DNA of 45,524 nucleotides from Nemertoderma westbladi (taxonomy: Eukaryota > Animalia > Xenacoelomorpha): the NCBI GenBank assembly GCA_032718475.1, contig JAUCBJ010000028.1:1-45524 (forward strand), given 5' to 3'. Within the stretch, counting starts at the first letter, position 1. The number at the start of each line of letters is the position of its first letter. A program made the position numbers and the translations under genes. Below the pieces are notes generated by a model. It was not told the origin of the DNA. It saw only the letters and a program-made list of their open reading frames with translations, and made no database searches. Shown one piece after another: positions 2,833 to 38,891 of this stretch.

Positions 2833-3602
2833 GAGGGGGAGAGAAGAGAGAGAGAGAGGGGATAAAAGAGGGGGGTAGAGTTAGGGAATATGAAGGTTTT
2901 ACAAAATGACTGACAGGTGTGTAGGTACACTGTACGATGTTGTAATATTATTCAAGAATGTAAATAGAATATTAAGTCTAGATTTTTTATGAACTTCTGA
3001 AGTCTCCATAGTAAACCCGCCATCCCTCCCAAATTACAATAATATATTGTATTTTACATAATTGTTTGTCGTCTTATTCCTTGACCTATTGACTACAAGC
3101 CCTGTTAACCCCCTATCTTATCCACATATAATAAATTATTGTATGAATAATATTCAATTGTTATAAGAAATTTGGGTACCCACATAATAAGCATGAATGG
3201 ACAGGGTCATACTGGGGAAGGGGGGGGGGGGGGGGGGGTAATAAACATATTATATTTTATAGCCCCAATCCCATCAACACAAGTGTTGATGAGGATTGGG
3301 GAGAAACACTTTCTATATAAGAATAAATATAGTTTATCTTTGCACTTTTCAGTTTCGTGTCCACCTCCAGTTTCATAGCCAACCTGGAATTAGGTGCTTC
3401 TAACATATTTATGTATAATAGGTACAATTCCATCATAATGTACCTAAAACATCTTAAAATATGTTTATGCATCTACTAATACCAAATTCAAGTTGATACA
3501 ATAAGATTTACAAGATTTGAAAAAATTAAAAAAAAAATTTTTTTTATCATATATTTGAAATTCCAGAATTGAAAATGCTCTAATTTTTTTTCTATTGATT
3601 TT

Positions 3603-5021
3603 AATCGAAAACGGTTTCGAAATTTGGAATCAGCGCATCAATATTTACCAGAAAAAGTGTTTTCGGGCAAAAAATTTTTTTTGCGCAAATCGCCAAAAAT
3701 TGACAAATCTCGTAAGGGGGGTTAGCACCGTGATTTTTGGCCAAAAATAAAAAACGCTGAAATTTGGTGAAAAGTTGCGCAAGAATAAATGGTATAATAA
3801 GTTATTGGACCATTTTCGATAAAAACCACTTTTGGCCAATTTATGGCCAATTTAGTAAAAAAAATTGGCCCTTTTTTAAAAAAGTTTGTCCCCCCTATGG
3901 CCCCTGAAGATACATTTTTTTTATAAAACAATGTATAGTGGATTTGTAGAACTCAAAAAATCAGACAGGCTTCATTTTTTTTTTGGAGCCCCTAGACCAA
4001 GGGTTCTCGAGATATTGGCTTCCGAAAATTTGCGTTTTTTGAAAAAAACAGAATTTTTGGTGGATAAAAATTTCCGTCGTCCATTTACTCCAAAGTAGTA
4101 GATTTTTGGGCTTAACTTTCTGTCTACGGAAGATAGCTATTGAGTAGTACTAAAACATGTTAAAGTTTAAAAAAAAAATAAACAGAGAATTTTGAGAAAA
4201 TTAATTTTCCCCAAAGTGGTTTTTTCCGATTTTCCGATTTCCCCCCTTTTTTCCCCCCATTTTCCCCCTCTAAAATTGACCAAGGTCAGGATCTGAAACA
4301 TTGAAAAGGTAGATCCACCTTCCCTCTGTTGATTAAAAGTGGAACGGTCTCGATCCCATATATAGCAACAGAGCTAGAGCGCTTACGAAATTGGCTCAAA
4401 TGGCCCAAAATTGGCGCCATAATGTCTACGACTTGCCCATAGCCGAGCACTGAATGCCTTTTGGCTGAAATTTTCAGAGAACATGCCCACAGTAGAGGCG
4501 CGTTTGTAGTACAAGTTTCAACCCCATAGGCCTGAAGCTCTATGAGCTAGGGGCTGCGGAATGTCGAAAAATAGCGTTTTTTGATAATTTTTCTGGGAAA
4601 AATGGATTCATTTAAAAATGGCCAATTTTTGAAATCTGAAATTTTGATAGAATGTGCATCATTTATATAGCTAGAAAAAACCCACACGACATTGCGTGGT
4701 TTGTATTTGATTTTTTCGAGAAAATTGAGCCGGAATGAAAAAAAACGTGATTTTTTAAAAATTTTCAATGTTTGACCTTTGACCTTTGACCCTTAAATGT
4801 GGAATTTTTTAAAAAACGAAGCTCAACTTTTCTAACGGGCGGGATGTCTGTCCGCACGCAAAATTTCAGCTTCCGAGCTTTATCCCTTCTGGGTGCTAGT
4901 ACGAACTCCGCCGCCAATCCTATATATAGAAACCTGTACAGGGGAAGGTTGGCTTCCTGACTGCGGAAGCCAACAGGTTTACTCTTTATTTTTTTACTTT
5001 CTGGAGATCCGCATATCCAAC
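3603..5021. repeat. Dispersed non-coding repeat, copy B; its right end abuts the truncated LINE RT
   Basis: Near-identical to 1396-2815, with the same hairpin at 4948-4974. Lacks the terminal GCGGA/CTAG segment of copy A. Confidence 0.75.
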
Positions 5022-5694
5022 AAGCACGGAACCCTGGGGGAGCCGATACATTAGCTTCTGGCACTCAGAATAGGTGTTCCCGACTTTAACCTGTTGTGTT
5101 CGTCCGAATAGATATGATACAAACCAATCTTACGCAGCTCCTCTAATACCAATATGGTTTTCCAAAAGTTCTAGTAGTTTACTATATTACACAGTATCAA
5201 AGGCTGCGCTTAAATCTAATAAAATTAAAAGAACAGCTGAGCCTCCATCGATATTCGATTATATCATTGTTCACCTTTAACAATGCAGTCTCGGTACCAT
5301 AGTACTGCCTATAGGCACTCTGCACCTGGGTCGTAGAGACTCAATTTGAATTCATGTGAGTGATTAACTGAGGTGTAACAATCTTCTCAGTCAACTTTGA
5401 TATATGAATAGTAAGTTTGATACAGGTCTAAAGTTCTTTATGATCCCCGGATCCAAGCGGGCCTTCTTTAAAATTGGATTAAGTATTGCCTCCTTAAATA
5501 TGGTTGGTACCGTTGCCGTTTTAATAGATAAATTTATAATCACCGTAATTATTGGCAATAACAGTTTAAGTGATAGCTTGACAACTCTTGTTGGTAATGG
5601 GTCGCGTGGACTTGTCTTAGACTTTGATTCTTTTTTATGAGTTTCTGTTTCATCCATTGTTACCTCCTGAAAGTCTGTAAGTAATGATTTCGGA

Positions 5695-5990
5695 GTGTTA
5701 CCCGTGGCAGCAAATGACGCAGCTGGGTTGCCCGTAGCAACCGATGACGCAGCTGGGTTGCCCGTAGCAACCGATGACGCAGCTGGGTTGCCAGTAGCAA
5801 CCGATGACGCAGCTGGGTTGCCCGTAGCAACCGATGACGCAGGTGGGTTGCCCGTAGAAACCGCTGACGCAGCTGGGTTGCCCGTAGCAACCGATGACGC
5901 AGCTGGGTTGCCCGTAGCAACCGATGACGCAGGTGGGTTGCCCGTAACAACCAATGACGCAGCTGGGTTGCCCATAGTAACTGATGACGT
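5695..5990. repeat. 30-bp minisatellite, ~10 units (GGGTTGCCCGTAGCAACCGATGACGCAGCT), in frame in the LINE ORF2 linker (ATGNPAASSV repeat)
   Basis: The tandem units are directly visible, and ORF 5391-6104 reads through them. Confidence 0.95.
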
Positions 5991-7443
5991 TATAGATTTA
6001 TCTGCAGCAATTTCATTTTTACAGACTGAAGTTATAGGCGTCAGTAAATCGGCACGAATATCCATTATCTTATCTTCGAAGAAACTTAGAAACACATTAG
6101 CCATCGACTTATCGTCATCATGCGTGGGCAGATTGCTTTTATTATTTCTGTACAGAATTTTATTAACAACCGCGAATAGTGTGTTAAAGGTTAAGGTTTC
6201 TTTAGCTGAGATGATGATTTCAGATACCGTTCTACATTGCTTCCGATAGGCAGCACAGTCTATAGGTAGTTTCGTCTTTTGGAACCTACGCTCAAGTTGA
6301 CGACGCTTTCTTTTTCCATCAGCAATTGCACTGTTGTATCAAGCAGCCTTTGGGTGTTTTGTGACGGTCTTTTTCAACATTGGCGCATGCTTGTTAAATA
6401 ATTGACTCAAAGTCTCATTATATTTGGCGAGGACCTCACTGATATTTGTATCTAATGTATTAGTAGCTGTACATAGAGTAGAATGTCCCAGATCGTCTAA
6501 AAATAAATCCAGGTTAAATTTGTTCATATTCCTGTAACTAACAGTTTCTGTATCCACGGCAGGTTTTACTAGGTTGAGGTTGAAATAAATAGCGAAATGG
6601 TCAGATAAGCCGATATTCCTTATGTTGATGTCCTTTTATGTGAGACGGTTCATGTACCCATTGGTGGAGCCCAAAACAATTTACAACATCCAGGAATTCA
6701 CAAGCTTCTTTGTCGTCACATACATCCACATGGAAGTTAAAGTCTCCAGCTATAATCAGTCGCCCAGGTAGAGGCGCATTACATCCTGTAGAAACTCAGC
6801 AAATTGGTCATAATGGAGCCGTAAACCCGTTTTTTTGAGAAGGACATGTCTGGTATATATTAAAAAGTCTTATTAGAACACCACAATGCAGTGAAGTTAG
6901 TTCAATATACTCAAATGTTGTGTATAAAACTATGCAAAGGTGCTGCTTTAACTGAAGTGCAGTTTTATATATGCAGGCGACACCACCACCAAGTTTATCA
7001 CTCCTGGGATTGTGTTTAAGTGTATATCCCGTTGGACAAATTTCATTAATAGTTACAATATCACTATCGTTTCCTTTCAACCAGGCCTCCGTAATAGCCA
7101 TAATGTCTACCTTATCGTCTACAATGTGGTCCTTTAACACTGCAGCTTTATTATTAATGGACCGTGCATCTTATAAACACACAGCAGTTAAAGTAGGATC
7201 TAAGATTTTCGACTCATATTCTGGAGTATACAGATACAGTCAATCTGTTTGTGTCGATATATTTCTGGAATTTCGACGGGATGGGGGGGTTTGCTATTGG
7301 TCCGGGGTTGTTAGAGTAACTGTAGGTGGTGTTACAGGATGCACTGTTGTATTGATCACAGTGTATTCCCCACTCGGTTTCAGTGATATTGACTCGGCTA
7401 CAGATTCTCGATAAATGACAAAGCGTTTTTCAGGATGCATTGC

Positions 7444-9657: not shown

Positions 9658-9685
9658 GGGGGGGGGGGGGGGGGGGGGGGGGGGG
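9658..9685. repeat. Poly-G tract (another at ~3220-3238)
   Basis: Homopolymer visible directly. Confidence 0.9.
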
Positions 9686-10528
9686 CAATCTGCTGCGAAC
9701 TACCGACACTATCCACAGAGGGGTGGAAGGTGGGGATTCTACGCAACCACATGGCAGAGCTCCCGCGACACAAGGAGCCAGAGAGCCATTGGAAGAGGTG
9801 GCGGATGAGTCTGGCAATCTCACGAATGGTGGATGATGAGTTGGAATCCTATCCCCCCGCCTAGAGGGCTTCAACAACTAGCGGGGTGAAATACAGAAAT
9901 TTAAACAATAATATAAACAGAAATACTGATACTTGATGAGTAGATCTACATAACTTAACCTACATTTGTAGTCTTAATCATATACTTAATCAATTATTGA
10001 TGAAGTCAAAGTTGTTCAAGATCAATAACTTGATCACGTTTCGCTCAATTTATTTCAAACTGCAACTGCAACAAAAATGAAAATTTTAGATGGAATTTTA
10101 CGTAATGTAACGTTATTATCGATTTAATAAATAAATAATAAAAGAAACCCAATTTTCCTGCTTTTTTGAAAGTGTTGCCATTTGGTTTATGTAATAACTA
10201 TTACATCATTGTGTGCAAAGTAGCACTTTGCAGCGTTACGACCCGAGTATATTTATGTACCGAGCGAGCGCAGCGAGGGAGTGAGGTTTACACAAACAAG
10301 GGTCTTTAACGCTGAAAAGTGACCTTTGCAAGCAATGATGTATGTAATTTTGATACATTATGTCAACTTAACAGCGTTCGGTATGTGAAGAAAGGATTTT
10401 ATGGATACTTATTTATACATTTTAATCATGTACTATATTGAATATAAGTGAAATGTATTAACAGGTACACAGTATTAATTATACTATACTACTACTATAC
10501 TTATACTATTTAAATCGAACTAATTAAC

Positions 10529-10574
10529 AGCGCTATACGCACGTTTCGGCCTAACAGGCCTCATCAGTAGCGCT
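10529..10574 (-). ncRNA. Minimal type I hammerhead ribozyme (inverted copy, intact core)
   Basis: The minus strand reads AGCGCTA-CTGATGA-GGCCTGTTAGGCC-GAAA-CGTGC-GTA-TAGCGCT, giving stem I, the CUGAUGA core, stem II, GAAA, a short stem III and a GUA cleavage triplet. Confidence 0.9.
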
Positions 10575-10921
10575 AACCAGCTCAGCCACTAGCCCCTGAC
10601 ACTCACAGTCCCACCTAATCCACTTCTATTGAACGGGCAGTCTTAAGTTGCATATATTGCACCTTTATCTTACCATTATATTACGGACCTTTAATTACAG
10701 TTGCAACAGCTCATCTCCAATTTATTTAATTAATATCAGCATGGCAGCAATACTCGAGCTGAATATTTATTTATTTGTACTTCCCTCCTGTTTCACTCTA
10801 GCATACTTGAGGCCGTTAGGTCCGCTGTTAGAGATAGAATTATATGCAACTTATGACTGCCCGTTCAATAGAAGTGGATTAGGTGGGACTGTGAGTGTCA
10901 GGGCTAGTGGCTGAGCTGGTT

Positions 10922-10970
10922 AGCGCTACATGATGTAGGCCTGCTAGGCCTGAAACGTACGTATAGCGCT
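10922..10970 (+). ncRNA. Degenerate hammerhead ribozyme copy (three single-base insertions in or next to the core)
   Basis: AGCGCTA-CATGATGTA-GGCCTGCTAGGCC-TGAAA-CGTACGTA-TAGCGCT. The stems are intact but the core is disrupted. Confidence 0.7.
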
Positions 10971-11251
10971 GGTTCAACCCCCGGTGACGCGCTCTCATTT
11001 TTTCCACTTCTGAACAAACCCATAATATTACACCTTTAATTACAGTTGCAACAGCTCATCTCCAATTTATTTAATTAATATCACCTGGCAGCAATACTCG
11101 AGCTGAATATTTATTTATTTGTACTTCCCTCCTGTTTCACTCTAGCATACTTGAGGCCGTTAGGTCCGCTGTTAGAGATAGAATATATGCAACTTAAGAC
11201 TGCCCGTTCAATAGAAGTGGATTAGGTGGGACTGTGAGTGTCAGGGGCTAG

Positions 11252-11346
11252 TGGCTGAGCTGGTTAGCGCTACTGATGAGGCCTGTTAGGCCGAAACGTA
11301 CGTATAGCGCTGGTTCAACCCCCGGTGACGCGCTTTCTCATTTTTT
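11252..11346 (+). promoter_or_regulatory. Putative type 2 Pol III internal promoter (A box 11252-11263, B box 11312-11322) and T6 terminator (11341-11346) bracketing the hammerhead
   Basis: TGGCTGAGCTGG fits the A-box consensus TRGCNNARYNNG, and GGTTCAACCCC fits the B-box GGTTCRANNCC. TTTTTT follows ~18 nt downstream. The same layout is present in the upstream unit (~10908-11002). Confidence 0.65.
11266..11311 (+). ncRNA. Minimal type I hammerhead ribozyme (intact); predicted cleavage after GUA at 11304
   Basis: Stem I AGCGCTA (11266-11272) / TAGCGCT (11305-11311); CTGATGA 11273-11279; stem II GGCCT-GTT-AGGCC 11280-11292; GAAA 11293-11296; palindromic ACGTACGT stem III 11296-11303. Confidence 0.93.
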
Positions 11347-12167
11347 CCACTTCTGAACAAACCCATAATATTACACCTTTAATTACAGTTGCAACAGCTC
11401 ATCTCCAATTTATTTAATAAATCATTAATCCACCTTGACTATTGTCGACTGAAGCAAACTAAGTCACAGTCTGTGTCCGTTCGGTTTTGCTGAACACTAT
11501 CGCCATTTTCTTTGGTCATTTTAGTGTCTTCTGTTGGACGTTTCGCCATAAAGGGATTACAGTATACGTTAAACAATTATTGACATACTGTCACATACTG
11601 TTATACGTCACTGCAAACTGGATAATAAAGCAGCACTCATCAAAATAAATGGAAATAATACATTCTGGAATACGGAAAATGAAGTTGTTTCCATGTCACT
11701 GATTACTTTGATTACCGTCCTATAGGCCGCAAAGCTGCAAAGTAATACTTTGCAGCGTTGCGAGTAATTCACCAGAACGCTATTAAGTTGACATAATGTA
11801 ACAAAATCTCTTGTATGTATATCCTCGAACTCTTCAAGAGGTTTGTGTTCTCCAAACAAATCTACCAAGCATGGCTGTCTATGAGGAGTAGATTGTTCAC
11901 AATTCCCGGACATTATTAATATTATTTAAATATCCCGCTTCTGTTCCAACTAATAAATTAAACACCGCAGTTTGTTCTGAGAGGATCTCATGTTAAAAAC
12001 TCAATGCTGATTCAGTCCTGGTAACTTAAGATTAATCTAAATACATCAAAACACTTTCATATATACAGCAATAAACAGTAAAGAAACTCATAAGTAAAAT
12101 AACAAGAAATGAAAAGCTGGCAGTAAATGAAAGTGGATAAACTTTAAACAAAAACACCTGATCCAGG

Positions 12168-13296: not shown

Positions 13297-15564
13297 ATGC
13301 CTGATCCAAAACCAAGTGGACCAACACCGGGAACCAATGGCGAGAAATTAACAAAACTCGCTAAGACACAAAGCGCATATCGACGACAAGCAACAAACGC
13401 AATCAAAGACGTTGGAGATATCAACACACTCACAAAGGTGACGAAAACGGCGAACTCAACAATCATAGAAGATACAATGAAAAAACTCGACACAATCAGC
13501 GAAGAGATTTGGGGGTATCTCGATGACGACGCTATGGATAAAGATGCCACAGATTCAATGGAATACAAGGTGAGACTCATCAACACGTTAAAACTGAACT
13601 GAAATTATCGATTGACTCAGATAACTACAGTAGTAATACATCTATTCTTAGTAGTACACAGCCTGTTGCCCAAGCACCTTTTCATTCTAATGCCTCAATT
13701 TTTTCAAATATAGATTACGCTAGTAGTTCCACAGCTAGGTCTGTTTTACCAAAGCTTAAGCTTCCTGAATTTGATGGCAATCCATTAAATTACCGCGGTT
13801 GGAGGGACTCGTTTCAATCCGCTGTACATGAGTCAGGTCTTCCTGATGTGCTGAAATTGGAGCACCTCATACAAAGTTTGTCTTCGACTGCAATGACTGT
13901 AATTGCCGGTTTACCAGTAAGCAGTGACAACTATAAAGTAGCAATGGACCTTTTACACAATGAATACGGCTCAGAAAACAAAATTATACAAGCTCATATA
14001 GAGCAATTACGAAATATTAAAAAGTCAATAGTTGATAGAAAATTAAAAACCATCTATAATACTTGCCAGAATCATATTCCTGCGTTAGCTGCACTAAATG
14101 TTCAGCCAGAATCATACCAATTAACAATCATACCAGACATTCTTGGGATTCTGGATTGGGAGTATGGCAGAAAATTGCTAGCAATGAAGAAAAATAATAT
14201 TTCGGATTTGACATGGTTAATGGATCAAATTGGGCAACGCTTAGAATCAGAGGACTAAGCACTCCGGTTTCGGAGTACATTAAATGTGTTTTCTGTAATC
14301 AATCGCATTATTCATCGGCATGCCACGTGATTCCAGAAGTAGATCAAAGGAGACAAATTCTAGAAAAAAAGGAATTGTGTTTCAACTGTCTGGGTAACAG
14401 ACACCTAGCTCGTAATTGTATACGTAACAAGCCTTGTTACAAATGTAAACGGACTGGTCACAATACAGCAATATGCTATCGGCTTCAGAATCAAGGGCGT
14501 TCATCATACCATAAACCCAATATAACCAGGTCCAACACATTGATTAGTAGCAACCAATATACGCCTAATAGCATGGTAGTCACGCAAGCACAAAGTGAAT
14601 ACTCAAATGAAATAACCAAAACATTAACAGTCAATATTCAGGCTTTAACTTCTAGTATAATATCATCAAACGGATGACTACAAACAGCAGTGATTAAATG
14701 TAACACTGCAAATGCGAACAATAAAACATTAAATACATCGTTTAATGATGGTAGCATGCGAACGTTTGTAACCAATAATTATGTCACAACCTACAACATA
14801 CCTATTAAAAACACTTAGCAATAAATGGTTTTGGTTACAAAATATCAGATAAGACATTCCATAACGTAGCCGAAATTGAGTTAATAACCAGCAACGGTAA
14901 TGTAGTTGTAATACATGCATTAGTAGTTGACAAGATTTGTAGTCCAATTTTCAGAAACTTCGAAATCAATAAAGGGGTAGAAACTAAATTAAATGGACTC
15001 GATTTACACAACAATAACAACTATAGGGAAATCGCAACCATTTACAGTGGAGTTACTTATAGGAGCAGATTATTACTGAGACATAGTTACAGGTAAGGCA
15101 ACGCGAATTTCGGGTTCTGGAATAGTAGCATTAGAATCTGTTGTTGGTTGGCTATTATCTGGGAAAGTACATAAAGTAAATGGTAATTATCATAATGTAT
15201 GCATGTTATCATTATCACAATCAGGCGATGAAACAATTGACAATGATACGCACAAGCTTAAAACAGTACTAAAAAGATTCTGGGCAATGCAAGATGTAAA
15301 CACGCCAAAACGAATACACCGAATCGCCTCAAACGAATAAGGTTCTCAAGTAAAATTGTAATGGATAACGGCTTATACACTGTACCCTTGCCATGGACTA
15401 CAAATCCGACATTGATAAAGTATCACTATAAACTGTGCGAAAATCAGTTATTTTCATTAATAAAAAGACTCCGAAAGAGTGGTGGTTTACTGGAAAGATA
15501 CGATAAAGTAATAAAGGAGCATCTTACAAAAAATTACATAGAACCAGTAAATCACTTGAAATAA
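13297..15564 (+). pseudogene. gag: Bel/Pao gag (DUF1759-like, three CCHC-type knuckles), protease and pre-RT region; disrupted
   Basis: LPKLKLPEFDGNP...W..F (~13746-13815); KLEHLIQSL...NY..A..LL...YG; CVFC...H....C, CFNCLG..H....C and CYKC....H....C (14213-14677); LLIGADYY (~15054-15077); Y.V.LPW (15361-15400). Stops and frameshifts throughout. Confidence 0.85.
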
Positions 15565-16668
15565 CCGGGGTCGATTTGTGTGTCCCATTGTCAATAATAG
15601 AAATCAATGATACAATCGCGAAGGATTACATTTGCTTGTTTAGATGTGCAGTAATTATGGCAATCACCTATAAATAGTTAGGGATCTGAGCCATAAATCA
15701 TTCATTGCTGCATTTCATCGGTTTATCTCGCGCAGAGGAATATCCAGTCATATGTTTTCTGACAATGCCTCTAATTTTCATAAATCCTCAAATGAAATTT
15801 TATTACAAAACAAATTGTTTAATTGTCCAGCGGTAATAGACGAATTCGGCAAACAAGAAATACATTGGAAATTTAACGTGCCTCTTAATCCCTCAGCATA
15901 CGGTTTCATCGAACGTATGGTCGGTGTAACTAAGGGATGCATGAAGAAAGTTCTAGATGGATCAGTCTTAACACTAGACCAATTACCTACAGTAATCGTC
16001 CAAATAGAAGCTATTGTGAACAGCAGACCTCTTATATTCACATACGACAAAAGGGAAGATTATTGTCATCCTTTAACCCCATCCCACTTCCTTGTACGTC
16101 ATAGGCTATGTTCGTTTCCAGGCAAGTCTTTACAAAGGTACAGCAATGTGACGCACATTACTCTTAATAAAGCAAAACAAACCAAAGAAATCTTAGTTAA
16201 CACATGTTGGAATGTGTGGAGAGAGGACTACATATCTGAGTTGCGCGAATTCCATAGCAAAGGCAATCTTAACCCACGCACGCCCGTCATTCCACAAGTA
16301 GGTGACGTGACATATGCATTTTAGAAGATCGTAAAATTCCGAGATGCTTGTGGAAATTCTGTAGAGTAAATGAATTGATAATTAGCAAAGACGGACAAAT
16401 ACGGGCTGCTCACATATACATAGTTAAGAGAAAGAAAGCTGCTCGTACTCTCAATCGTTCAATAAAGCAACTCATACCATTTGAAATAAATCAGCACGAT
16501 CATAACATTATCAAGGAGGGAGACATTACTAGAGTAAAGTCAGTCCAAAATAGAGATATCAAACCGAAAAGCGAATGTGAAGTGCTGGAACATTCAGTAC
16601 CCATTCAGCAAACTGCAATGAATCCCGCCAGAACACGAGAATTCATACCTCGTATTGCCAAGAAGTAA
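15565..16668 (+). pseudogene. Bel/Pao integrase core and C-terminal region; disrupted
   Basis: TGVD at 15564-15575; FHRFISRRG; SDNASNF; GFIERMVG..K; IEAIVNSRPL; PLTPSHFL; W..W..DYI..L; DGQIRAA...RSIKQLIPFE. Confidence 0.88.
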
Positions 16669-17301: not shown

Positions 17302-19478
17302 ATATATTTTAACAATAAGCCTAGCGTTATTTAGGCACCAAATAAAATTAACAAGGATAATACTATTCATTAAGCGATATGGCACTAAAATTCAATTTAT
17401 AAGTAGTTATAAATTAATTAATTTAAAAAACAAACCGAAGTAAAATCGAGTTTATTATATGAGCTATGGAATAAATTTAAAAATATATCTACTTTCGTTG
17501 CCGTGATGATTTGTTCGCCCAATAAGATAGCGGGTGATGGTTTCTAGAACACGCTGTAAGGTTATACTTGTCCGCCATTGCGCCACAGAGCGAGCAAATA
17601 CAGTCACTGGTAGGATCATGGAAATCAGTAGTGCTACAAATATGGTGATGGAAGCCGTGTATGGACATACGCGTTATTATATGTCTATTCTTAAAATTTG
17701 AGTTCTTCCACTTTTGATTTGTGAAGGCCGGAGAGTTCCAAAAACTAGCGGGAATTTCTTCTTGCTTTGATTTCACAGCCTGAAAATATTTACAAAATTC
17801 TTCAGTTTTCGGTGCATTTAAAACCGCCTGTAGATCAGCACACAAATAATTTTCCTTGCATATCGCCAGCACTAATCGATTTTGAGACGTTTTGTGTAAT
17901 GAAAGTACGCGTTTTAGAAAATTTGTCTTTATTCTATCAATGTCGTGGAAATTTGATGCCTTTAAGAACTGCCAGATTTCTCCGAGACCGTATAATACTA
18001 TAGGACGAACCTTTATGTTGAATAACTTTATCGCTGTACCGAGTGACAGTATAGTTGGATTTTTAATACCATGTATTGATTTAAGCGCCTTACATTGGAT
18101 GTTTATAACGTGCAAACTGAAAGAAAGTGTTGGCTGTAACACAATACCGAGATACGTGTAGTTGTTGACAATTTCTACAGGTTTGCCATTGTAGTAGAAT
18201 TTGTCGGCGTTACAAAGTCTACCGCCCCGCCTAAACTTGATAATTTGGGATTTCTTTAAGTTTGCAGTCAGTCCATTCAATGACGCCCAGGTATAAGTTG
18301 CGTCTATAGCAGACTGTAGAGCAACTCTGGAATCCGAGAAGAATACCAAGTCGTCGGCAAACAGGAAAGCAATTACAGATTCAGCTGATCGTTTAATAAA
18401 CTTTATAAGGTCCCAGATATATAATATAAACAAAAACGGACTCAAACTATCGCCCTGTAGAAATCCTTGAGTCTGTTTTACAGACTTTGACTTTCGCAGA
18501 CCATCATAAATGTGTATGTAGTTTGGGCTGAGGATTGCTTTAATTAAGTTTAACAATTTACCATTAACTTTAAATACGTGTTCTAACTTAAGCAGGATCC
18601 TTGACCGCGGAACTGAGTCGAAGGCCTTTTGGAAATCAATGAAACACGCATATAAAGGTTTTTTCGGCGTGGAAAGGTTAGCTTTGATCCGTAAGAGTAG
18701 AAGGCGTAAAGGTTCCATTGTTGATCTGCCAGATATAAACCCGAATTGCCAGGTCGGTATCTTACATTCTAGAAATTCCCGTAGGCGTCTCTCTACTAAA
18801 CCTGTGAGGAGTTTATATGGATTGCACAGCAGCGAAATTCCCCTGTAGTTATTGGGATCATCGCGTAGCCCTTTAAGCTTATACAGAACTTTAGTTAAAC
18901 TAAATTTCCAAGAAGTAACAAGGGACCCTGTTGTTAAACATATGTTAAATAGCAACGTCCAGAAATATATTGTTAGCGATATTGATCCTTTCAAAACCTC
19001 ATACGTTAATTTATCCGGTCCACCCGATTTACCATTTTTCTTCCGCCATAATTCCCTTTCAATCTCCTCGGCAGTGAAAGGTCTATTACATGCGTCGTCC
19101 GCATCATCGACGGACGAGTCCAGCTGGTCCGTAGTCTGTTCGTCACCGGTATCTATAGGGTCCGCATCTGGGCTGTTTAATATCTTTGTGAAATGGGTTT
19201 CCCACGTCTCTAAGGGAATTGAACAGCAGGACTGTGCTGGTCGCTCTTTACACCACCGATAAGGCTGGGATTCAGCTTCCTCTAGTAATCGCAGTTCCAT
19301 TCGCTCATCGAAATCGCGGCGTTTTCTCGATAACAGAGATTTATATTCCAATTTTATATTGCAACATTCCTCTCTAAGGTTTATATTGGATTTGGCCGAT
19401 AAATGGGCAGCGAGGACTTGTTTCCGTTTCTGAAAACATTCTCCGTCGAACCATGGTTTTGAATGTCGGTTTCTGGGG
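17302..19478 (-). mobile_element. 5'-truncated non-LTR retrotransposon (RTE/RTEX-like) inserted in the 3' LTR
   Basis: Perfect 17-bp TSD TGTTATTAACAAGTTTT (17285-17301 and 19479-19495). Contains an uninterrupted RT ORF and an AT-rich 3' UTR. The clade assignment is inferred from motif style. Confidence 0.92.
17489..19478 (-). CDS. LINE ORF2 fragment: reverse transcriptase with Cys/His-rich C-terminus (endonuclease lost by 5' truncation)
   Basis: 620-aa ORF (17489-19351) whose frame continues upstream through KPWFDGEC. Motifs: KSGGPD, NYRGISLL, QFGF, FIDFQKAFDSV, QGDSLSPFLF, FADD, YTYLG, LYG.EIW, CSLCG. Confidence 0.93.
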
Positions 19479-20215
19479 TGTTATTAACAAGTTTTGCAAG
19501 TAGAAGGAATAGTTTGTTTTCGCACTCAATTTGTGGAAATTATATTTTCACAACACCAGGATCGATCCCATTACTTTCACATCTTAAGTCTGGCACGCAA
19601 CGGAGTGAGATATACTAGTAGTGTAACAGACTGATTGGAGGGGGGACTGAAAAAAAAGAGAAAACGACCGTGAAACTTGTATAAGATAAGGTGCTGATGA
19701 AAAAAAGGGGAAAACTGAAGAAAAGAAGGACATAATATGTGAAAAAGGATAAATATGGCTGAACAAATATATTTCATAAGCTGGTGAAATTGTTATTGTT
19801 TTTAAATCATATAAAACTTGATAAGCCAGCAAGCTGGCTATAAGAAGACCGTCCATAGTGTAGTTTGGGTCCCTCACTATTGAACAGCTTTGCGAGATTC
19901 TGAGAGATGGTAATACTGTACAACACCTACAAGTCATTATTAGTAACCTATAAATCATAAAAAGTTTGAACAGCCCAGTAGCTTAAAGTTCAATCAGCTG
20001 GTCTCGTACCTAACCTAGCAGTGAGTAACCTTATAGATATTACCATAGGATTCACTGGGAAGAGCTATTCACAGCTGGCGGGGTAATACGTTACTAACTA
20101 ACAGTTTTTATATTATTGCTCACTGTCTAGGATAGAGCGAGGTAGTAATAAACTTGGCAAGTAATGTACATCTCTGCAGTTGGGGCCTATCCATTCAATC
20201 AATAGTAGTAACTTA

Positions 20216-20486: not shown

Positions 20487-20847
20487 GATGTCCTAACAGT
20501 CTTCTAATTAATAAATAAAATACTTTACTTAGAATATATATCTCAAGAATTTTCGGTTTTCATAAATATAATGTGCTAGAACCAGGTTTTTCCACGTTTT
20601 TCTAAATATTCTAGAAAAAAAACCGCAATATAATAATATTTATCTGTGAGATATAATCTATATTATTTTATCCAGAAAATTATATAGTGATTCGGCGTGA
20701 AAAAAGAAAAATAAGTTTACCGAAACCCACTGACCCCATAGAGTTCAAACCACCATTAACGATCGACTTACAAAGTACTGACAATCAAGGTAAGAAGACG
20801 AAGAAGGACAAATTACTTGTAGACCCGGACGGATCAACAGTCAACAA

Positions 20848-23800
20848 GGGAGGTGCCACCTCAACGTAGTCCCAGGTCCCGATCCCATCAAAGAGAGGTG
20901 TCACCAATATGGAGTCCCAGGTCCCGATCCTATCAAAGAGAGGTGTCACCCCAACGTAGTCCCAGGTCCCGATCCCATCAAAGAGAGGTGTCACCAATAT
21001 GGAGTCCCAGGTCCCGATCCCATCAAAGAGAGGTGTCACCCATATGGAGTCCCAGGTCCCGATCCCAACAAAGAGAGGTGTCACCAATATGGAGTCCCAG
21101 GTCCCGATCCCAACAAAGAGAGGTGTCACCAATATGGAGTCCCAGGTCCCGATCCCATCAAAGAGAGGTGTCACCAATATGGAGTCCCAGGTCCCGATCC
21201 CAACAAAGAGAGGTGTCACCCATATGGAGTCCCAGGTCCCGATCCCAACAAAGAGAGGTGTCACCAATATGGAGTCCCAGGTCCCGATCCCAACAAAGAG
21301 AGGTGTCACCCAAACGGAGTCCTAGGTTCCGATCCCATTAAAGAGATGTGTCACCAATATGGAGTCCCAGGTCCCGATCCCATCAAAGAGAGGTGTCACC
21401 AATATGGAGTCCCAGGTCCCGATCCCAACAAAGAGAGGTGTCATCCAAACGGAGTCCCAGCTCCCGATCCCAACAAAGAGAGGTATCACCTAAATGGAGT
21501 CCCAGGTCCTGATCCCATCAAAGAGAGGTGTCACCAATATGGAGTCCGAGGTCCCGATCCCATCAAAGAGAGGTGTCACCAATATGGAGTCCCAGGTCCC
21601 GATCCCAACAAAGAGAGGTGTCACCCATAAGGAGTCCAATGTCCCGATCCCATCAAAGGGAGGTGTCACCCATAAGGAGTCCCAGGTCCCGATCCCAACA
21701 AAGGGAGTTGTCACCCAAACGTAGTCCCAGATTCAGATCCCATCAAAGAGAGGTGTCACCCATAAGGAGTCCCATGTCCCGATACCATCAAAAGGAGGTG
21801 TCACCCATAAGGAGTCCCAGGTCCCGATCCCATCAAAGGGAGGTGTCACCCATAAGGAGTCCCAGGTCCCGATCACATCAAAGAGAGGTGTCACCCAAAC
21901 GGAGTCCTAGGTTCCGATCCCATTAAAGAGATGTGTCACCAATATGGAGTCCCAGGTCCCGATCCCAACAAAGAGAGGTGTCACCCAAACGGAGTCCTAG
22001 AGGTCCCGATCCCATCAAAGAGAGGTGTCACCCAAACGGAGTCCTAGGTTCCGATCCCATTAAAGAGATGTGTCACCAATATGGAGTCCCAGGTCCCGAT
22101 CCCAACAAAGAGAGGTGTCACCCAAACGGAGTCCCAGCTCCCGATCCCAACAAAGAGAGGTATCACCTAAATGGAGTCCCAGGTCCCGATCCCATCAAAG
22201 AGAGGTGTCACCAATATGGAGTCCGAGGTCCCGATCCCATCAAAGAGAGGTGTCACCAATATGGAGTCCCAGGTCCCGATCCCAACAAAGAGAGGTGTCA
22301 CCCATAAGGAGTCCCAGGTCCCGATCCCAACAAAGGGAGTTGTCACCCAAACGTAGTCCCAGATTCAGATCCCATCAAAGAGAGGTGTCACCCATAAGGA
22401 GTCCCATGTCCCGATACCATCAAAAGGAGGTGTCACCCATAAGGAGTCCCAGGTCCCGATCCCATCAAAGGGAGGTGTCACCCATAAGGAGTCCCAGGTT
22501 CAGATCCCTTCATAGAGAGCAGTCCCAGGTCCCAATCCCATCAAAGAGAGGAGTCACTCATATGGAGTCCCAGATCCCGATCCCAACAAAGAGAGGTTTC
22601 ACCCAAATGGATTCCCAGGTCCCGATCCCAACAAAGAGAGGTTTCACCCAAATGGAGACCCAGGTCCCGATCCTAACAAAGTGAGGTGCCACCTCAACGT
22701 AGTCCCAGGTCCCGATCCCATCAAAGAGAGGTGTCACCAATATGGAGTCCCAGGTCCCGATCCTATCAAAGAGAGGTGTCACCCCAACGTAGTCCCAGGT
22801 CCCGATCCCATCAAAGAGAGGTGTCACCAATATGGAGTCCCAGGTCCCGATCCCATCAAAGAGAGGTGTCACCCATATGGAGTCCCAGGTCCCGATCCCA
22901 ACAAAGAGAGGTGTCACCAATATGGAGTCCCAGGTCCCGATCCCAACAAAGAGAGGTGTCACCCAAACGTAGTCCCAGATTCAGATCCCATCAAAGAGAG
23001 GTGTCACCCATAAGGTGTCCCATGTCCCGATACCATCAAAAGGAGGTGTCACCCATAAGGAGTCCCAGGTCCCGATCCCATCAAAGGGAGGTGTCACCCA
23101 AACGTAGTCCCAGGTCCCGATCCCATCAAAGAGAGGTGTCACCAATATGGAGTCCGAGGTCCCGATCCCATCAAAGAGAGGTGTCACCAATATGGAGTCC
23201 CAGGTCCCGATCCCAACAAAGAGAGGTGTCACCCATAAGGAGTCCAATGTCCCGATCCCATCAAAGGGAGGTGTCACCCATAAGGAGTCCCAGGTCCCGA
23301 TCCCAACAAAGGGAGGTGTCACCCAAAAGTAGTCCCAGATTCAGATCCCATCAAAGAGAGGTGTCACCCATAAGGAGTCCCATGTCCCGATACCATCAAA
23401 ATGAGGTGTCACCCATAAGGAGTCCCAGGTCCCGATCCCAACAAAGGGAGGTGTCACCCAAACGTAGTCCCAGATTCAGATCCCATCAAAGAGAGGTGTC
23501 ACCCATAAGGAGTCCCATGTCCCGATACCATCAAAATGAGGTGTCACCCATAAGGAGTCCCAGGTCCCGATCCCAACAAAGGGAGATGTCACCCAAACGT
23601 AGTCCCAGATTCAGATCCCATCAAAGAGAGGTGTCACCCATAAGGAGTCCCATGTCCCGATACCATCAAAAGGAGGTGTCACCCATAAGGAGTCCCAGGT
23701 CCCGATCCCATCAAAGGGAGGTGTCACCCATAAGGAGTCCCAGGTCCCGATCCCATCAAAGGGAGGTGTCACCCATAAGGAGTCCCAGGTTCAGATCCCT

Positions 23801-26800
23801 TCATAGAGAGCAGTCCCAGGTCCCAATCCCATCAAAGAGAGGAGTCACCCATATGGAGTCCCAGGTCCCGATCCCAACAAAGAGAGGTTTCACCCAAATG
23901 GAGACCCAGGTCCCGATCCCAACAAAGAGAGGTATCACCCAAATGGAGACCCAGGTCCCGATCCTAACAAAGTGAGGTGCCACCTCAACGTAGTCCCAAG
24001 TACCCGATCCCATCAAAGAGAGGTGTCACCAATATGGAGTCCCAGGTCCCGATCCTATCAAAGAGAGGTGTCACCCCAACGTAGTCCCAGGTCCCGATCC
24101 CATCAAAGAGAGGTGTCACCAATATGGAGTCCCAGGTCCCGATCCCATCAAAGAGAGGTGTCACCCATATGGAGTCCCAGGTCCCGATCCCAACAAAGAG
24201 AGGTGTCACCAATATGGAGTCCCAGGTCCCGATCCCAACAAAGAGAGGTGTCACCAATATGGAGTCCCAGGTCCCGATCCCATCAAAGAGAGGTGTCACC
24301 AATATGGAGTCCCAGGTCCCGATCCCAACAAAGAGAGGTGTCACCCATATGGAGTCCCAGGTCCCGATCCCAACAAAGAGAGGTGTCACCAATATGGAGT
24401 CCCAGGTCCCGATCCCAACAAAGAGAGGTGTCACCCAAACGGAGTCCTAGGTTCCGATCCCATTAAAGAGATGTGTCACCAATATGGAGTCCCAGGTCCC
24501 GATCCCAACAAAGAGAGGTGTCACCCAAACGGAGTCCTAGGTCCCGATCCCATCAAAGAGAGGTGTCACCAATATGGAGTCCCAGGTCCCGATCCCAACA
24601 AAGAGAGGTGTCACCCAAACGGAGTCCTATGTCCCGATCCCATCAAAGAGAGGTGTCACCAATATGGAGTCCCAGGTCCCGATCCCAACAAAGAGAGGTG
24701 TCACCCAAACGGAGTCCCAGCTCCCGATCCCAACAAAGAGAGGTATCACCTAAATGGAGTCCCAGGTCCTGATCCCATCAAAGAGAGGTGTCACCAATAT
24801 GGAGTCCGAGGTCCCGATCCCATCAAAGAGAGGTGTCACCAATATGGAGTCCCAGGTCCCGATCCCAACAAAGAGAGGTGTCACCCATATGGAGTCCAAT
24901 GTCCCGATCCCATCAAAGGGAGGTGTCACCCATAAGGAGTCCCAGGTCCCGATCCCAACAAAGGGAGTTGTCACCCAAACGTAGTCCCAGATTCAGATCC
25001 CATCAAAGAGAGGTGTCACCCATAAGGAGTCCCATGTCCCGATACCATCAAAAGGAGGTGTCACCCATAAGGAGCCCCAGGTCCCGATCCCATCAAAGGG
25101 AGGTGTCACCCATAAGGAGTCCCAGGTCCCGATCACATCAAAGAGAGGTGTCACCCAAACGGAGTCCTAGGTCCCGATCCCATCAAAGAGAGGTGTCACC
25201 CAAACGGAGTCCTAGGTTCCGATCCCATTAAAGAGATGTGTCACCAATATGGAGTCCCAGGTCCCGATCCCAACAAAGAGAGGTGTCACCCAAACGGAGT
25301 CCCAGCTCCCGATCCCAACAAAGAGAGGTATCACCTAAATGGAGTCCCAGGTCCCGATCCCATCAAAGAGAGGTGTCACCAATATGGAGTCCGAGGTCCC
25401 GATCCCATCAAAGAGAGGTGTCACCAATATGGAGTCCCAGGTCCCGATCCCAACAAAGAGAGGTGTCACCCATAAGGAGTCCCAGGTCCCGATCCCAACA
25501 ATGGGAGTTGTCACCCAAACGTAGTCCCAGATTCAGATCCCATCAAAGAGAGGTGTCACCCATAAGGAGTCCCATGTCCCGATACCATCAAAAGGAGGTG
25601 TCACCCATAAGGAGTCCCAGGTCCCGATCCCATCAAAGGGAGGTGTCACCCATAAGGAGTCCCAGGTTCAGATCCCTTCATAGAGAGCAGTCCCAGGTCC
25701 CAATCCCATCAAAGAGAGGAGTCACTCATATGGAGTCCCAGATCCCGATCCCAACAAAGAGAGGTTTCACCCAAATGGAGTCCCAGGTCCCGATCCCAAC
25801 AAAGAGAGGTATCACCCAAATGGAGACCCAGGTCCCGATCCTAACAAAGTGAGGTGCCACCTCAACGTAGTCCCAGGTCCCGATCCCATCAAAGAGAGGT
25901 GTCACCAATATGGAGTCCCAGGTCCCGATCCTATCAAAGAGAGGTGTCACCCCAACGTAGTCCCAGGTCCCGATCCCATCAAAGAGAGGTGTCACCAATA
26001 TGGAGTCCCAGGTCCCGATCCCATCAAAGAGAGGTGTCACCCATATGGAGTCCCAGGTCCCGATCCCAACAAAGAGAGGTGTCACCAATATGGAGTCCCA
26101 GGTCCCGATCCCAACAAAGAGAGGTGTCACCCAAACGTAGTCCCAGATTCAGATCCCATCAAAGAGAGGTGTCACCCATAAGGAGTCCCATGTCCCGATA
26201 CCATCAAAAGGAGGTGTCACCCATAAGGAGTCCCAGGTCCCGATCCCATCAAAGGGAGGTGTCACCCAAACGTAGTCCCAGGTCCCGATCCCATCAAAGA
26301 GAGGTGTCACCAATATGGAGTCCGATGTCCCGATCCCATCAAAGAGAGGTGTCACCAATATGGAGTCCCAGGTCCCGATCCCAACAAAGAGAGGTGTCAC
26401 CCATAAGGAGTCCAATGTCCCGATCCCATCAAAGGGAGGTGTCACCCATAAGGAGTCCCAGGTCCCGATCCCAACAAAGGGAGGTGTCACCCAAACGTAG
26501 TCCCAGATTCAGATCCCATCAAAGAGAGGTGTCACCCATAAGGAGTCCCATGTCCCGATACCATCAAAAGGAGGTGTCACCCATAAGGAGTCCCAGGTCC
26601 CGATCCCAACAAAGGGAGGTGTCACCCAAACGTAGTCCCAGATTCAGATCCCATCAAAGAGAGGTGTCACCCATAAGGAGTCCCATGTCCCGATACCATC
26701 AAAAGGAGGTGTCACCCATAAGGAGTCCCAGGTCCCGATCCCATCAAAGGGAGGTGTCACCCATAAGGAGTCCCAGGTCCCGATCCCATCAAAGGGAGGT

Positions 26801-29315
26801 GTCACCCATAAGGAGTCCCAGGTTCAGATCCCTTCATAGAGAGCAGCCCCAGGTCCCAATCCCATCAAAGAGAGGAGTCACCCATATGGAGTCCCAGGTC
26901 CCGATCCCAACAAAGAGAGGTTTCACCCAAATGGAGACCCAGGTCCCGATCCCAACAAAGAGAGGTATCACCCAAATGGAGACCCAGGTCCCGATCCTAA
27001 CAAAGTGAGGTGCCACCTCAACGTAGTCCCAAGTACCCGATCCCATCAAAGAGAGGTGTCACCAATATGGAGTCCCAGGTCCCGATCCTATCAAAGAGAG
27101 GTGTCACCCCAACGTAGTCCCAGGTCCCGATCCCGTCAAAGAGAGGTGTCACCAATATGGAGTCCCACGTCCCGATCCCATCAAAGAGAGGTGTCACCCA
27201 TATGGAGTCCCAGGTCCCGATCCCAACAAAGAGAGGTGTCACCAATATGGAGTCCCAGGTCCCGATCCCAACAAAGAGAGGTGTCACCAATATGGAGTCC
27301 CAGGTCCCGATCCCATCAAAGAGAGGTGTCACCAATATGGAGTCCCAGGTCCCGATCCCAACAAAGAGAGGTGTCACCCATATGGAGTCCCAGGTCCCGA
27401 TCCCAACAAAGAGAGGTGTCACCAATATGGAGTCCCAGGTCCCGATCCCAACAAAGAGAGGTGTCACCCAAACGGAGTCCTAGGTTCCGATCCCATTAAA
27501 GAGATGTGTCACCAATATGGAGTCCCAGGTCCCGTTCCCAACAAAGAGAGGTGTCACCCAAACGGAGTCCTAGGTCCCGATCCCATCAAAGAGAGGTGTC
27601 ACCAATATGGAGTCCCAGGTCCCGATCCCAACAAAGAGAGGTGTCACCCAAACGGAGTCCTATGTCCCGATCCCATCAAAGAGAGGTGTCACCAATATGG
27701 AGTCCCAGGTCCCGATCCCAACAAAGAGAGGTGTCACCCAAACGGAGTCCCAGCTCCCGATCCCAACAAAGAGAGGTATCACCTAAATGGAGTCCCAGGT
27801 CCTGATCCCATCAAAGAGAGGTGTCACCAATATGGAGTCCGAGGTCCCGATCCCATCAAAGAGAGGTGTCACCAATATGGAGTCCCAGGTCCCGATCCCA
27901 ACAAAGAGAGGTGTCACCCATAAGGAGTCCAATGTCCCGATCCCATCAAAGGGAGGTGTCACCCATAAGGAGTCCCAGGTCCCGATCCCAACAAAGGGAG
28001 TTGTCACCCAAACGTAGTCCCAGATTCAGATCCCATCAAAGAGAGGTGTCACCCATAAGGAGTCCCATGTCCCGATACCATCAAAAGGAGGTGTCACCCA
28101 TAAGGAGCCCCAGGTCCCGATCCCATCAAAGGGAGGTGTCACCCATAAGGAGTCCCAGGTCCCGATCACATCAAAGAGAGGTGTCACCCAAACGGAGTCC
28201 TAGGTTCCGATCCCATTAAAGAGATGTGTCACCAATATGGAGTCCCAGGTCCCGATCCCAACAAAGAGAGGTGTCACCCAAACGGAGTCCTAGGTCCCGA
28301 TCCCATCAAAGAGAGGTGTCACCCAAACGGAGTCCTAGGTTCCGATCCCATTAAAGAGGTGTGTCACCAATATGGAGTCCCAGGTCCCGATCCCAACAAA
28401 GAGAGGTGTCACCCAAACGGAGTCCCAGCTCCCGATCCCAACAAAGAGAGGTATCACCTAAATGGAGTCCCAGGTCCCGATCCCATCAAAGAGAGGTGTC
28501 ACCAATATGGAGTCCGAGGTCCCGATCCCATCAAAGAGAGGTGTCACCAATATGGAGTCCCAGGTCCCGATCCCAACAAAGAGAGGTGTCACCCATAAGG
28601 AGTCCAATGTCCCGATCCCATCAAAGGGAGGTGTCACCCATAAGGAGTCCCAGGTCCCGATCCCAACAAAGGGAGTTGTCACCCAAACGTAGTCCCAGAT
28701 TCAGATCCCATCAAAGAGAGGTGTCACCCATAAGGAGTCCCATGTCCCGATACCATCAAAAGGAGGTGTCACCCATAAGGAGTCCCAGGTCCCGATCCCA
28801 TCAAAGGGAGGTGTCACCCATAAGGAGTCCCAGGTTCAGATCCCTTCATAGAGAGCAGTCCCAGGTCCCAATCCCATCAAAGAGAGGAGTCACTCATATG
28901 GAGTCCCAGATCCCGATCCCAACAAAGAGAGGTTTCACCCAAATGGAGTCCCAGGTCCCGATCCCATCAAAGAGAGGTGTCACCAATATGGAGTCCCAGG
29001 TCCCGATCCCATCATAGGGAGGTGTCACGCAAACGTAGTCCCAGGTCCCGATCCCATCAAAGAGGTGTGTCACCAATATGGAGTCCCAGGTCCCGATCCC
29101 AACAAAGAGAGGTTTCACCCAAATGGAGACCCAGGTCCCGATCCTAACAAAGTGAGGTGCCACCTCAACGTAGTCCCAGGTCCCGATCCCATCAAAGAGA
29201 GGTGTCACCAATATGGAGTCCCAGGTCCCGATCCTATCAAAGAGAGGTGTCACCCCAACGTAGTCCCAGGTCCCGATCCCATCAAAGAGAGGTGTCACCA
29301 ATATGGAGTCCCAGG
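20848..29315 (+). repeat. 45-bp satellite array (~185-190 units; consensus GGTGTCACCAATATGGAGTCCCAGGTCCCGATCCCAACAAAGAGA) with ~3.0-3.3-kb higher-order repeat
   Basis: The 45-bp periodicity is directly visible. The marker variant GAGGTGCCACCTCAACG recurs at ~20850, 22683, 23974, 25851, 27007 and 29154. Confidence 0.97.
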
Positions 29316-29582: not shown

Positions 29583-29794
29583 CTTCCGCTACCGGTACCG
29601 TAAGCGGCATTTTTGCAGAATACCCCAGACCCGAAATTTCTAAATAAAACTCAGTTGATCATGAATATAATGAATGATACTGTAGCTAGAGTTATACTGT
29701 ACAGCGGCACTTCTACGAGTATGTGTACCCATGACCGGGATTTTTTGGTAGTAGCTATTTTTTGCTACTTTTTTTTAAATTTTCTATATCAAAT

Positions 29795-34151: not shown

Positions 34152-34202
34152 TATATTAAGTCAGATTATAATTATAAGTTATGCACAGTTTACTATTTTT
34201 AA

Positions 34203-35147: not shown

Positions 35148-35162
35148 TACAGAAGGTTCAGA

Positions 35163-38865: not shown

Positions 38866-38891
38866 TATATTTCGTTCAAGCGAAAAATAGG

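Follow-up and report, generated by a model that had tools for sequence, protein, structure and literature searches.

A hammerhead ribozyme motif nested between Pol III promoter boxes in a retrozyme-like tandem repeat of Nemertoderma westbladi

How animal retrozymes are transcribed is an open question, and the review by the group that defined them describes them as seemingly having no promoter (PMC7761336). The locus studied here raises this question in a specific form. Within a window of 45.5 kb, which is the whole stretch of DNA that was analysed, a small array at approximately 10528-11418 carries a cassette in which an A box and a B box enclose a hammerhead motif, with a run of six thymines after them. 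It must be asked what kind of element this is, and whether the boxes are a promoter, a part of the ribozyme, or both. The explanation that is slightly favoured is that of a non-LTR retrozyme with its own Pol III promoter: a tandem repeat, non-coding and present in many copies, whose unit of 341-343 bp has the hammerhead motif between the boxes.

Elements of the cassette and their predicted fold

The elements of the cassette and of the unit around it are the following.

11004-11244, forward strand: body of the unit, from T6 to the next cassette, with seven TTT runs and no T4
11238-11247, forward strand: 5' strand of a basal stem, pairing with 11321-11323 and 11326-11331 (mean probability 0.84 in RNAfold) and probably close to where Pol III starts
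11252-11263, forward strand: A box, a strict consensus match; 11253-11254 and 11256-11261 are predicted to be paired with the B box, and the GG at 11262-11263 opens a 4-nt bulge of helix I
11266-11272, forward strand: 5' strand of helix I, pairing with 11305-11311 (mean probability 0.85) and overlapping the 3' strand of the would-be D-stem
11273-11279, forward strand: hammerhead core, C3 to A9, identified by sequence and descriptor
11280-11292, forward strand: helix II and loop 2 (mean pair probability 0.96)
11293-11304, forward strand: GAAA (11293-11296), the 2-bp helix III with an 8-nt palindrome (11296-11303), and GUA, with the predicted cut after 11304
11305-11311, forward strand: 3' strand of helix I, overlapping the 5' strand of the would-be T-stem
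11312-11322, forward strand: B box, a strict consensus match, 60 nt from the A box start-to-start
11341-11346, forward strand: T6, the predicted Pol III terminator, 18 nt after the B box and the sole run of four or more T in each unit
10964-11304, forward strand: predicted cut-to-cut monomer of 341 nt, with the B box and T6 at its 5' end and the A box and core at its 3' end

The A box, the hammerhead, the B box, the interval of 18 nt and T6 had all been named in the initial annotation, and every one of them is present. The consensus motifs used in the box scan are those generally known for A and B boxes. The TRGCY/YGG and GGTTC motifs given in the text of PMC10886601 agree with them. Strict B boxes occur twice in the 45.5-kb window, both within the array, and the hammerhead descriptor finds exactly two sites in the whole window, at 11273 on the forward strand and, in an inverted copy, at 10567 on the reverse strand; it finds none in 200 dinucleotide shuffles of a 12-kb region searched on both strands. 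When the hammerhead is held fixed and the rest of the unit is shuffled, a strict A box at most 40 nt upstream together with a strict B box at most 40 nt downstream is never obtained in 20,000 shuffles, and boxes of the loose consensus are obtained once in 20,000; shuffling of the local flanks gives 0 (strict) and 1 (loose) in 20,000. The position of T6 is by itself a weak signal, since 501 of 5000 shuffles place a run of five or more T equally close to the B box, and the same is true of the T4-free body, which is matched by 415 of 5000 shuffles and by 41 of the 466 241-mers of the window with a like T content.

The Rfam search proposed in the initial annotation returned the hammerhead in part and the tRNA not at all. 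At gathering thresholds nothing in the cassette is matched, and at E<=10 the only match is a partial one to Hammerhead_3, covering the core (19 bits, E 0.44). No Rfam tRNA match was obtained with the whole cassette or with either half. ARAGORN with default settings finds no tRNA in the cassette, and at a threshold of 87% it reports a pseudogene only, which is equalled by 17 of 1000 shuffles. When the ribozyme was excised in silico in 418 ways, ARAGORN made 402 calls at the 80% threshold, with mixed isotypes among the ten listed; these calls were not used as evidence, because they are no more informative than the native sequence. A tRNA gene with an intron was rejected as a candidate, given the lack of an Rfam tRNA match and ARAGORN calls that appear only at a relaxed threshold and with inconsistent isotypes. 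Elsewhere in the window (43945-44025, forward strand), a second tRNA-like head has loose A and B boxes and T5, with no ribozyme and no Rfam tRNA match, and is likely to be a SINE head or a tRNA pseudogene.

In the structure predicted by RNAfold, the A box pairs with the B box and extends helix I (11256-11261 with 11312-11317, and 11253-11254 with 11319-11320). A 4-nt bulge at 11262-11265 contains the GG of the D-loop, and a basal stem is formed between 11238-11247 and 11321-11331, in which 11238-11243 pair with 11326-11331; the predicted rod extends well beyond the boxes. The hammerhead had been placed in the position of the anticodon arm of a tRNA-like fold, and this placement does not agree with the prediction, in which helix I uses strands of the D- and T-stems and the two boxes are paired with each other. 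Because the two strands of helix I would also be needed for the tRNA arms (D-stem, 3' strand; T-stem, 5' strand), cloverleaf and hammerhead are mutually exclusive. The ribozyme had also been described as a minimal type I hammerhead. It is of type I and lies between the A and B boxes, but it is the canonical and not the minimal form, because the sizes of its helices (helix I of 7 bp with a bulged extension, helix II of 4-5 bp, helix III of 2 bp with a palindromic tetraloop) fit the 'canonical metazoan' type I ribozyme as described in the text of PMC4209133, where the short palindromic helix III is said to require a dimer. The self-duplex of the helix III palindrome is predicted at -9.8 kcal/mol, or -8.8 kcal/mol with a variant at 11300, and helix III in the monomer is slightly unfavourable, at a cost of 0.6 kcal/mol. 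Fold stability above that of shuffles was not found, with z of 0.15 to 0.35 for the cassette and of -0.3 for the circular monomer.

According to this model, the boxes are predicted to serve twice, as a promoter in the DNA and as an extension of helix I in the RNA. Seven positions of the A box and eight of the B box lie inside the predicted helix. All five pairs that involve a box position free of consensus are formed (four Watson-Crick and one G.U), and the single mismatch, C11255 with A11318, brings together two fixed promoter positions. In simulations of a strand that evolved purely for pairing with the 3' arm, a strict A box match appears in 126 of 200,000 cases, and pairing alone is therefore insufficient to explain the A box.

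These observations bear directly on the most serious of the rival explanations, a promoterless retrozyme in which the boxes are what remains of a captured head, from a tRNA or a SINE, and were kept solely as an extension of helix I, and in which read-through by a host polymerase makes the unit RNA. The box positions within the predicted helix, the continuation of the rod well outside the boxes and the weakness of the signals from T6 and the T4-free body speak for it, and read-through has been proposed for metazoan retrozymes, which seem to be without a promoter (PMC7761336). However, both boxes are perfect even where pairing makes no demand (T11252, C11255, G11262, G11263 and the mismatched A11318), and they have remained perfect while the acceptor and T stems decayed. 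Relic boxes are considered rather unlikely.

Transcription, cleavage and the monomer

The distance of 60 nt between the A and B boxes falls inside the range of 31-93 nt given for yeast tRNA genes (PMC4937561). In yeast, Pol III starts 18-20 nt upstream of box A (PMC4937561), a rule that would put the start of the cassette RNA at 11232-11234, and the predicted basal stem begins at 11238. By analogy with yeast and from the modelled stem, a 5' end at approximately 11232-11238 is more likely than the one at 11245 that had been put forward in the initial annotation. For termination, T6 allowed yeast Pol III to be released completely in vitro (PMC9278858), and the minimum reported for human is four (PMC4937561). 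Given that T6 lies 37 nt past the cut, the promoter of the cassette would mostly yield an RNA of about 105-115 nt, and RNA of unit length requires read-through. The distance to be read through, approximately 300 nt, is greater than the 50-200 nt that is typical of Pol III read-through in yeast in vivo (PMC4937561).

It follows that the Pol III unit of about 100 nt and the monomers of 344 nt that the initial annotation had combined are incompatible as products of the same transcript unless T6 is read through. The length is also to be corrected, given that the period of the repeat is 341-343 bp and the cut-to-cut monomer has 341 nt. Its reading of the geometry is borne out by the sequence: a cut after 11304 separates the two boxes and leaves a permuted monomer with the B box first and the A box last, from which the promoter can be restored only if copying crosses a ligated junction or proceeds along a multimer.

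For a retrozyme with its own Pol III promoter, the following cycle is proposed, in which the motifs, their spacing, the tandem and inverted layout and the abundance are taken from the sequences, the fold and the dimer from prediction, and transcription, cleavage, ligation and mobilisation by Penelope from known systems. TFIIIC would bind the boxes and Pol III would start at about 11232-11238, with most transcripts ending at T6 as RNA of about 105-115 nt. In a tandem array, a fraction would pass T6, the T4-free body and the next hammerhead, and end at the second T6. Two hammerheads would then pair via the helix III palindrome and cut, releasing a monomer of 341-343 nt with B first and A last, which a host ligase (RtcB in known systems) would close. 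A reverse transcriptase of Penelope type would copy round the circle or along a multimer, and partial tandems would be inserted, these being the only products that rebuild the order A box, hammerhead, B box. For retrozymes of coral, mussel and axolotl, circular RNAs, cleavage of dimers and ligation by RtcB are described (PMC7229834), and an origin of retrozymes from Penelope is argued in bioRxiv 10.64898/2026.07.22.740005, where eight of the nine Xenopus dimers tested are reported as uncut.

The strength of T6 as a terminator speaks for a second rival explanation, in which a working promoter makes only the RNA of about 105-115 nt that ends at T6, this RNA is self-cutting or acts in trans, and the RNA of the unit does not come from Pol III. 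In detail, its palindrome would pair with the hammerheads of long transcripts made by Pol II read-through, so that lone copies could cut. The palindrome does permit intermolecular pairing, helix III of the monomer is unfavourable, and cleavage in trans is reported for Sm-alpha (PMC6765202). A T4-free body, weak as this signal is, would nonetheless be unneeded in such a model, which is judged to be quite improbable. The favoured explanation and the two rivals discussed so far all involve an element of retrozyme type.

A hint on circles comes from public sequencing runs, five of which contain the unit. Four were compared, three of DNA (X1, X3 and X5) and one, X4, that is RNA only by guess and is labelled as a different organism. 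X4 has two contigs on the region, one of which, of 155 nt, includes a piece of the flanking repeat. The other has 371 nt, is unbranched and covers 10960-11330, with its first 30 nt equal to its last 30. Given an assembly word of 31 letters, it is read as a closed cycle of 341 nt; this is a single contig with a depth of 5.5, found by its likeness to the copy studied here. It carries three alleles that are present at 2-7% in X1 and X3, and the majority alleles of X1 and X3 are absent from it, which fits one RNA species better than a thin sampling of the DNA family. As a sign of circular RNA the cycle is a weak hint, given that a homogeneous tandem DNA array gives the same cycle.

The array, its insertion and its family

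The array is made of an inverted fragment and 2.2 direct units, as follows.

10528-10658, reverse strand: inverted, 5'-truncated copy, corresponding to unit positions 11182-11312, with the A box and an intact hammerhead and without the B box; it stops where helix I stops
10659-10672: linker of 14 nt that joins the inverted and direct parts
10673-11019, forward strand: tandem unit 1, with A box at 10908-10919, damaged hammerhead core, B box at 10971-10981 and T6 at 10998-11003
11020-11362, forward strand: tandem unit 2, of 343 bp and 44% GC, with no ORF of 100 aa, carrying the intact cassette
11363-11418 (end approximate), forward strand: partial unit 3

The inverted copy is 99.2% identical to unit 2 over 131 nt, with one substitution that lies within loop III, and it stops 50 nt short of the unit position where the direct part begins. 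An assembly artefact by fold-back was rejected, since the junction is no mirror and 50 nt are skipped. In run X1, a contig with a depth of 26 covers 10663-10664 in the linker. The array covers three cut sites and terminates at neither a cut site nor T6, its right end being 114 nt beyond the cut site and 72 nt beyond T6. No target duplication was found at the ends of the array, where the longest junction repeat is of 2-5 nt. Contigs of other samples link the flanks without the array (10454, 10481 and 10484 to 11417, 11441 and 11462), from which it is likely that the array is one insertion into another repeat. This host repeat (10347-10527 and 11417-11807) has inverted arms of 33 nt at 10347-10379 and 11775-11807, is associated with palindromes (10202-10342 and 11728-11762) and a microsatellite of TATACTA type, has high depth in the DNA runs, and is perhaps a MITE or a helitron-type element.

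Units 1 and 2 share 96% identity and differ by four substitutions and eight gap events, six of which are insertions, three of them in the ribozyme. Three other repeat pairs in the window have ratios of substitutions to gap events of 6:0, 17:3 and 89:13. Given that its differences are rich in insertions, unlike those of these pairs, the damage to unit 1 may be partly read error, and the small insertions of this unit (10673-11019) are possibly uncorrected long-read errors. Two consecutive units with complete hammerheads, by which Li et al. recognise active elements, are not found at this locus, where the core of unit 1 is damaged, possibly by such errors.

The family is plainly large and diverse: 2302, 1917 and 155 contigs of the three DNA runs fall on the 1.1-kb region, and their summed depth, which is not a copy number, peaks over the ribozyme and the B box. 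The variant figures refer to the 40 of 98 variants listed, each of which has a frequency of roughly one half or above in one or more runs, and the remainder could hold minority changes in the core or boxes. Among the variants listed, six within the cassette reach a majority in some run, and all six keep the boxes, the core and the pairing. Three of them are at unpaired positions (11249, 11286, which is in loop 2, and 11336). The variant at 11259, present at 54, 44 and 97% in X1, X3 and X5, keeps a purine in the A box and turns a G.U pair into A-U, that at 11300 leaves the palindrome paired through G.U, and that at 11331 changes G-C to G.U. Given that 33% of all possible substitutions are compatible (40% when transitions are weighted), six of six has P of 0.001-0.004, a value that is partly post hoc, with three of the six variants seen before the model was fixed and with sites that are not independent. 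Because a single one of these six falls within a box, the result points to selection on the RNA fold and gives no separate sign of selection on the promoter. Indels were also seen, each in individual contigs, at 11271, at 11296 and at 10577/10581, the last of these within the A box that the inverted copy carries. In the contigs, no position has many molecule starts or ends, and among the public runs with the unit none is on record as RNA.

The layout of the array also has to be weighed against a third rival, in which an autonomous Penelope-like element was truncated and the array, no independent unit, is its terminal repeat (pLTR). A partial tandem with an inverted copy is in agreement with this, and retrozymes are described as resembling pLTRs (bioRxiv 10.64898/2026.07.22.740005). 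However, there is no RT or GIY-YIG ORF in or beside the array, consecutive units adjoin directly, and the X4 cycle closes at 341 nt, which makes this origin very improbable. An autonomous Penelope was not seen in the window, where the 17 ORFs that were scanned matched no domains other than those of LINE and BEL/Pao elements. A DNA satellite that recombination has amplified, with ribozyme and boxes inert today, would suit the tandem layout, the damaged core of unit 1 and the absence of a recorded RNA run with the unit, but it hardly merits consideration in view of an inverted-plus-tandem insertion into another repeat and of majority variants that all keep the fold.

For the self-promoting retrozyme, the evidence counted in favour is the box placement (0 of 20,000 shuffles), the variants that keep the fold, the Penelope-like layout and the X4 cycle. 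Counted against it are the strength of T6 and the read-through distance, the fact that the position of T6 and the T4-free body recur in 8-10% of controls, the damaged core of unit 1, the lack of an Rfam tRNA match, the z of -0.3 of the circular monomer, the piece of flanking repeat that X4 also contains, the window without an autonomous Penelope and the eight uncut Xenopus dimers.

The remainder of the window is rich in repeats. It has a LINE reverse transcriptase ORF (17489-19480, reverse strand; RVT_1, E 2e-32), whose best named matches, at no more than 38% identity, are from mites, insects, a hemichordate and a fish, remains of BEL/Pao type (13542-16668, forward strand; DUF1759 and DUF5641) and a weak endonuclease match (6808-7170, reverse strand). 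A 45-bp satellite with 53% GC, higher-order repeats and more than 250 copies occupies 20846-29315, 38892-39024 and 40292-43401, and an array of repeats of about 1.0-1.3 kb, with 84-99% identity and an internal sub-repeat of about 460 bp, occupies 29790-40280. Further repeats are a direct repeat of 1.55 kb with 93% identity (1266-2818 and 3471-5024), a 30-bp tandem array (5714-5989), a run of G28 (9658-9685) and 17-bp tandem repeats arranged as inverted arms (44439-44619).

Relation to known elements and significance

Metazoan non-LTR retrozymes, as described in the text of PMC7229834 and bioRxiv 10.64898/2026.07.22.740005, resemble the unit in being non-coding tandems of 150-450 bp with less than 50% GC, many copies and no LTR layout, and in carrying one type I hammerhead per unit with a helix III of 2 bp and a palindromic tetraloop. 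They differ in that they seem promoterless (PMC7761336), whereas the unit here has a perfect A box, a B box and T6 round the ribozyme. The closest precedent is Sm-alpha, as the initial annotation had recognised: the tandem unit of Sm-alpha and Sj-alpha, of about 335 bp, likewise has both a type I hammerhead and the A and B boxes of Pol III, and their single copies are described as no longer able to propagate (PMC6765202, PMC2576457, PMC8490949). In Sm-alpha, however, the promoter comes before the ribozyme and stays in one piece, at the 3' end of the RNA after cleavage (PMC6765202), whereas here the ribozyme is between the boxes and the cut splits the promoter. The head of Sm-alpha is still called a tRNA by tRNAscan-SE (PMC2770079), whereas the boxes here are predicted to be part of helix I. 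This contrast is drawn from the descriptions in the text of PMC6765202, PMC2576457, PMC8490949 and PMC2770079.

With Penelope-like elements the array shares a partial tandem next to which lies a 5'-truncated copy in inverted orientation, a layout described as typical of them (PMC8557442), the lack of a clear target duplication and a palindromic helix III (PMC8557442, PMC4209133); they have an ORF with RT and GIY-YIG, and the unit here is without an ORF. With tRNA-derived SINEs and Helenus TRIMs it shares the boxes of a type 2 internal promoter and the nature of a non-autonomous retroelement (PMC10886601). In Helenus the boxes are within the terminal repeat, and hammerheads appear in the text available of PMC10886601 merely as a citation. 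Compared with both, the unit has no head-body-tail structure, no A tail and no LTR, PBS or PPT, and the ribozyme replaces the middle of the tRNA-like part. A tRNA-derived SINE was rejected as a candidate: the distance between the boxes fits, but there is no 5' head, body, 3' tail or target duplication, and the array ends inside the body. The proposal of a new SINE/retrozyme family thus holds for a high-copy retrozyme-like family, as judged from contig counts, and not for a SINE layout.

The literature searched, including the text available of PMC4918200, PMC5680766 and PMC6155905, gave no example of boxes that enclose a ribozyme and take part in its helix I; Repbase, subscription papers and figures were outside this search. 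By the literature found, a Pol III promoter with a hammerhead is known (Sm-alpha, with the promoter upstream), and what appears to be new is the nested layout with its predicted dual use.

Relatives were sought in mainly microbial collections, in which none outside the family was found. A pattern of core and B box gave 7 viral loci, 119 of about 310 metagenome loci (25 of 64 parts) and 120 of about 180 prokaryote-genome loci (44 of 64 parts), and none of these 246 loci has a type I hammerhead. The same is true of the 120 loci, of about 170 viral ones, with a pattern of A box and core, and a family-specific pattern in viral contigs and blastn against phages gave no match. Because these collections hold little animal DNA, the searches are uninformative on the spread of the family among animals.

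A type III descriptor is passed by 7 of the 119 metagenome loci. In L040, L057, L086 and L122, together with L017, which aligns with this set and does not pass the descriptor, LTR-like ends contain a type III hammerhead with a D-arm-like helix I hairpin, its loop resembling a D-loop, and a perfect B box after it (L057:30-125, L086:29-124, L122:32-127, L040:465-578 and L017:470-565). L057, L086 and L122 have an A box of the 11-nt form with one mismatch and are identical over about 120 nt, diverging after a CA end, and in L040 a purine tract and TG lie about 485 nt upstream. Judged from sequence, these five loci resemble LTR ends and are perhaps fungal, and they may be an independent instance of a Pol III promoter with a ribozyme inside it. 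The exact pattern is absent from the prokaryote genomes and viral contigs searched. Three other loci (L030, L075 and L112) have no A box; each carries a type III hammerhead, which Rfam matches below its gathering threshold (E of about 5e-6 to 8e-6), and, after it, a hairpin whose loop resembles a B box. A wider proposal, offered tentatively because we regard it as doubtful, is that promoter and ribozyme are interlocked in a design that arose twice, as the nesting in the five type III loci would suggest, and that may have been overlooked in described retrozymes. The boxes would recruit TFIIIC as DNA and make up helix I and its loop as RNA; cleavage would destroy the promoter, and only correctly ligated circles or uncut multimers would yield transcribable copies, which would amount to a check on circularisation. 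The terminated RNA of about 110 nt may in this case assist the cleavage of dimers in trans.

A family with a complete internal Pol III promoter motif makes the transcription of animal retrozymes testable with a cassette of 110 nt, in which point mutants could separate the role of the boxes as promoter from their role in the helix. If the dual use is true, the unit would be a compact natural case of one sequence that is both a DNA promoter and part of a catalytic RNA, and a self-contained design for the production of circular RNA. If the boxes are inert, it would be the record of a ribozyme that was built into a captured tRNA-like head.
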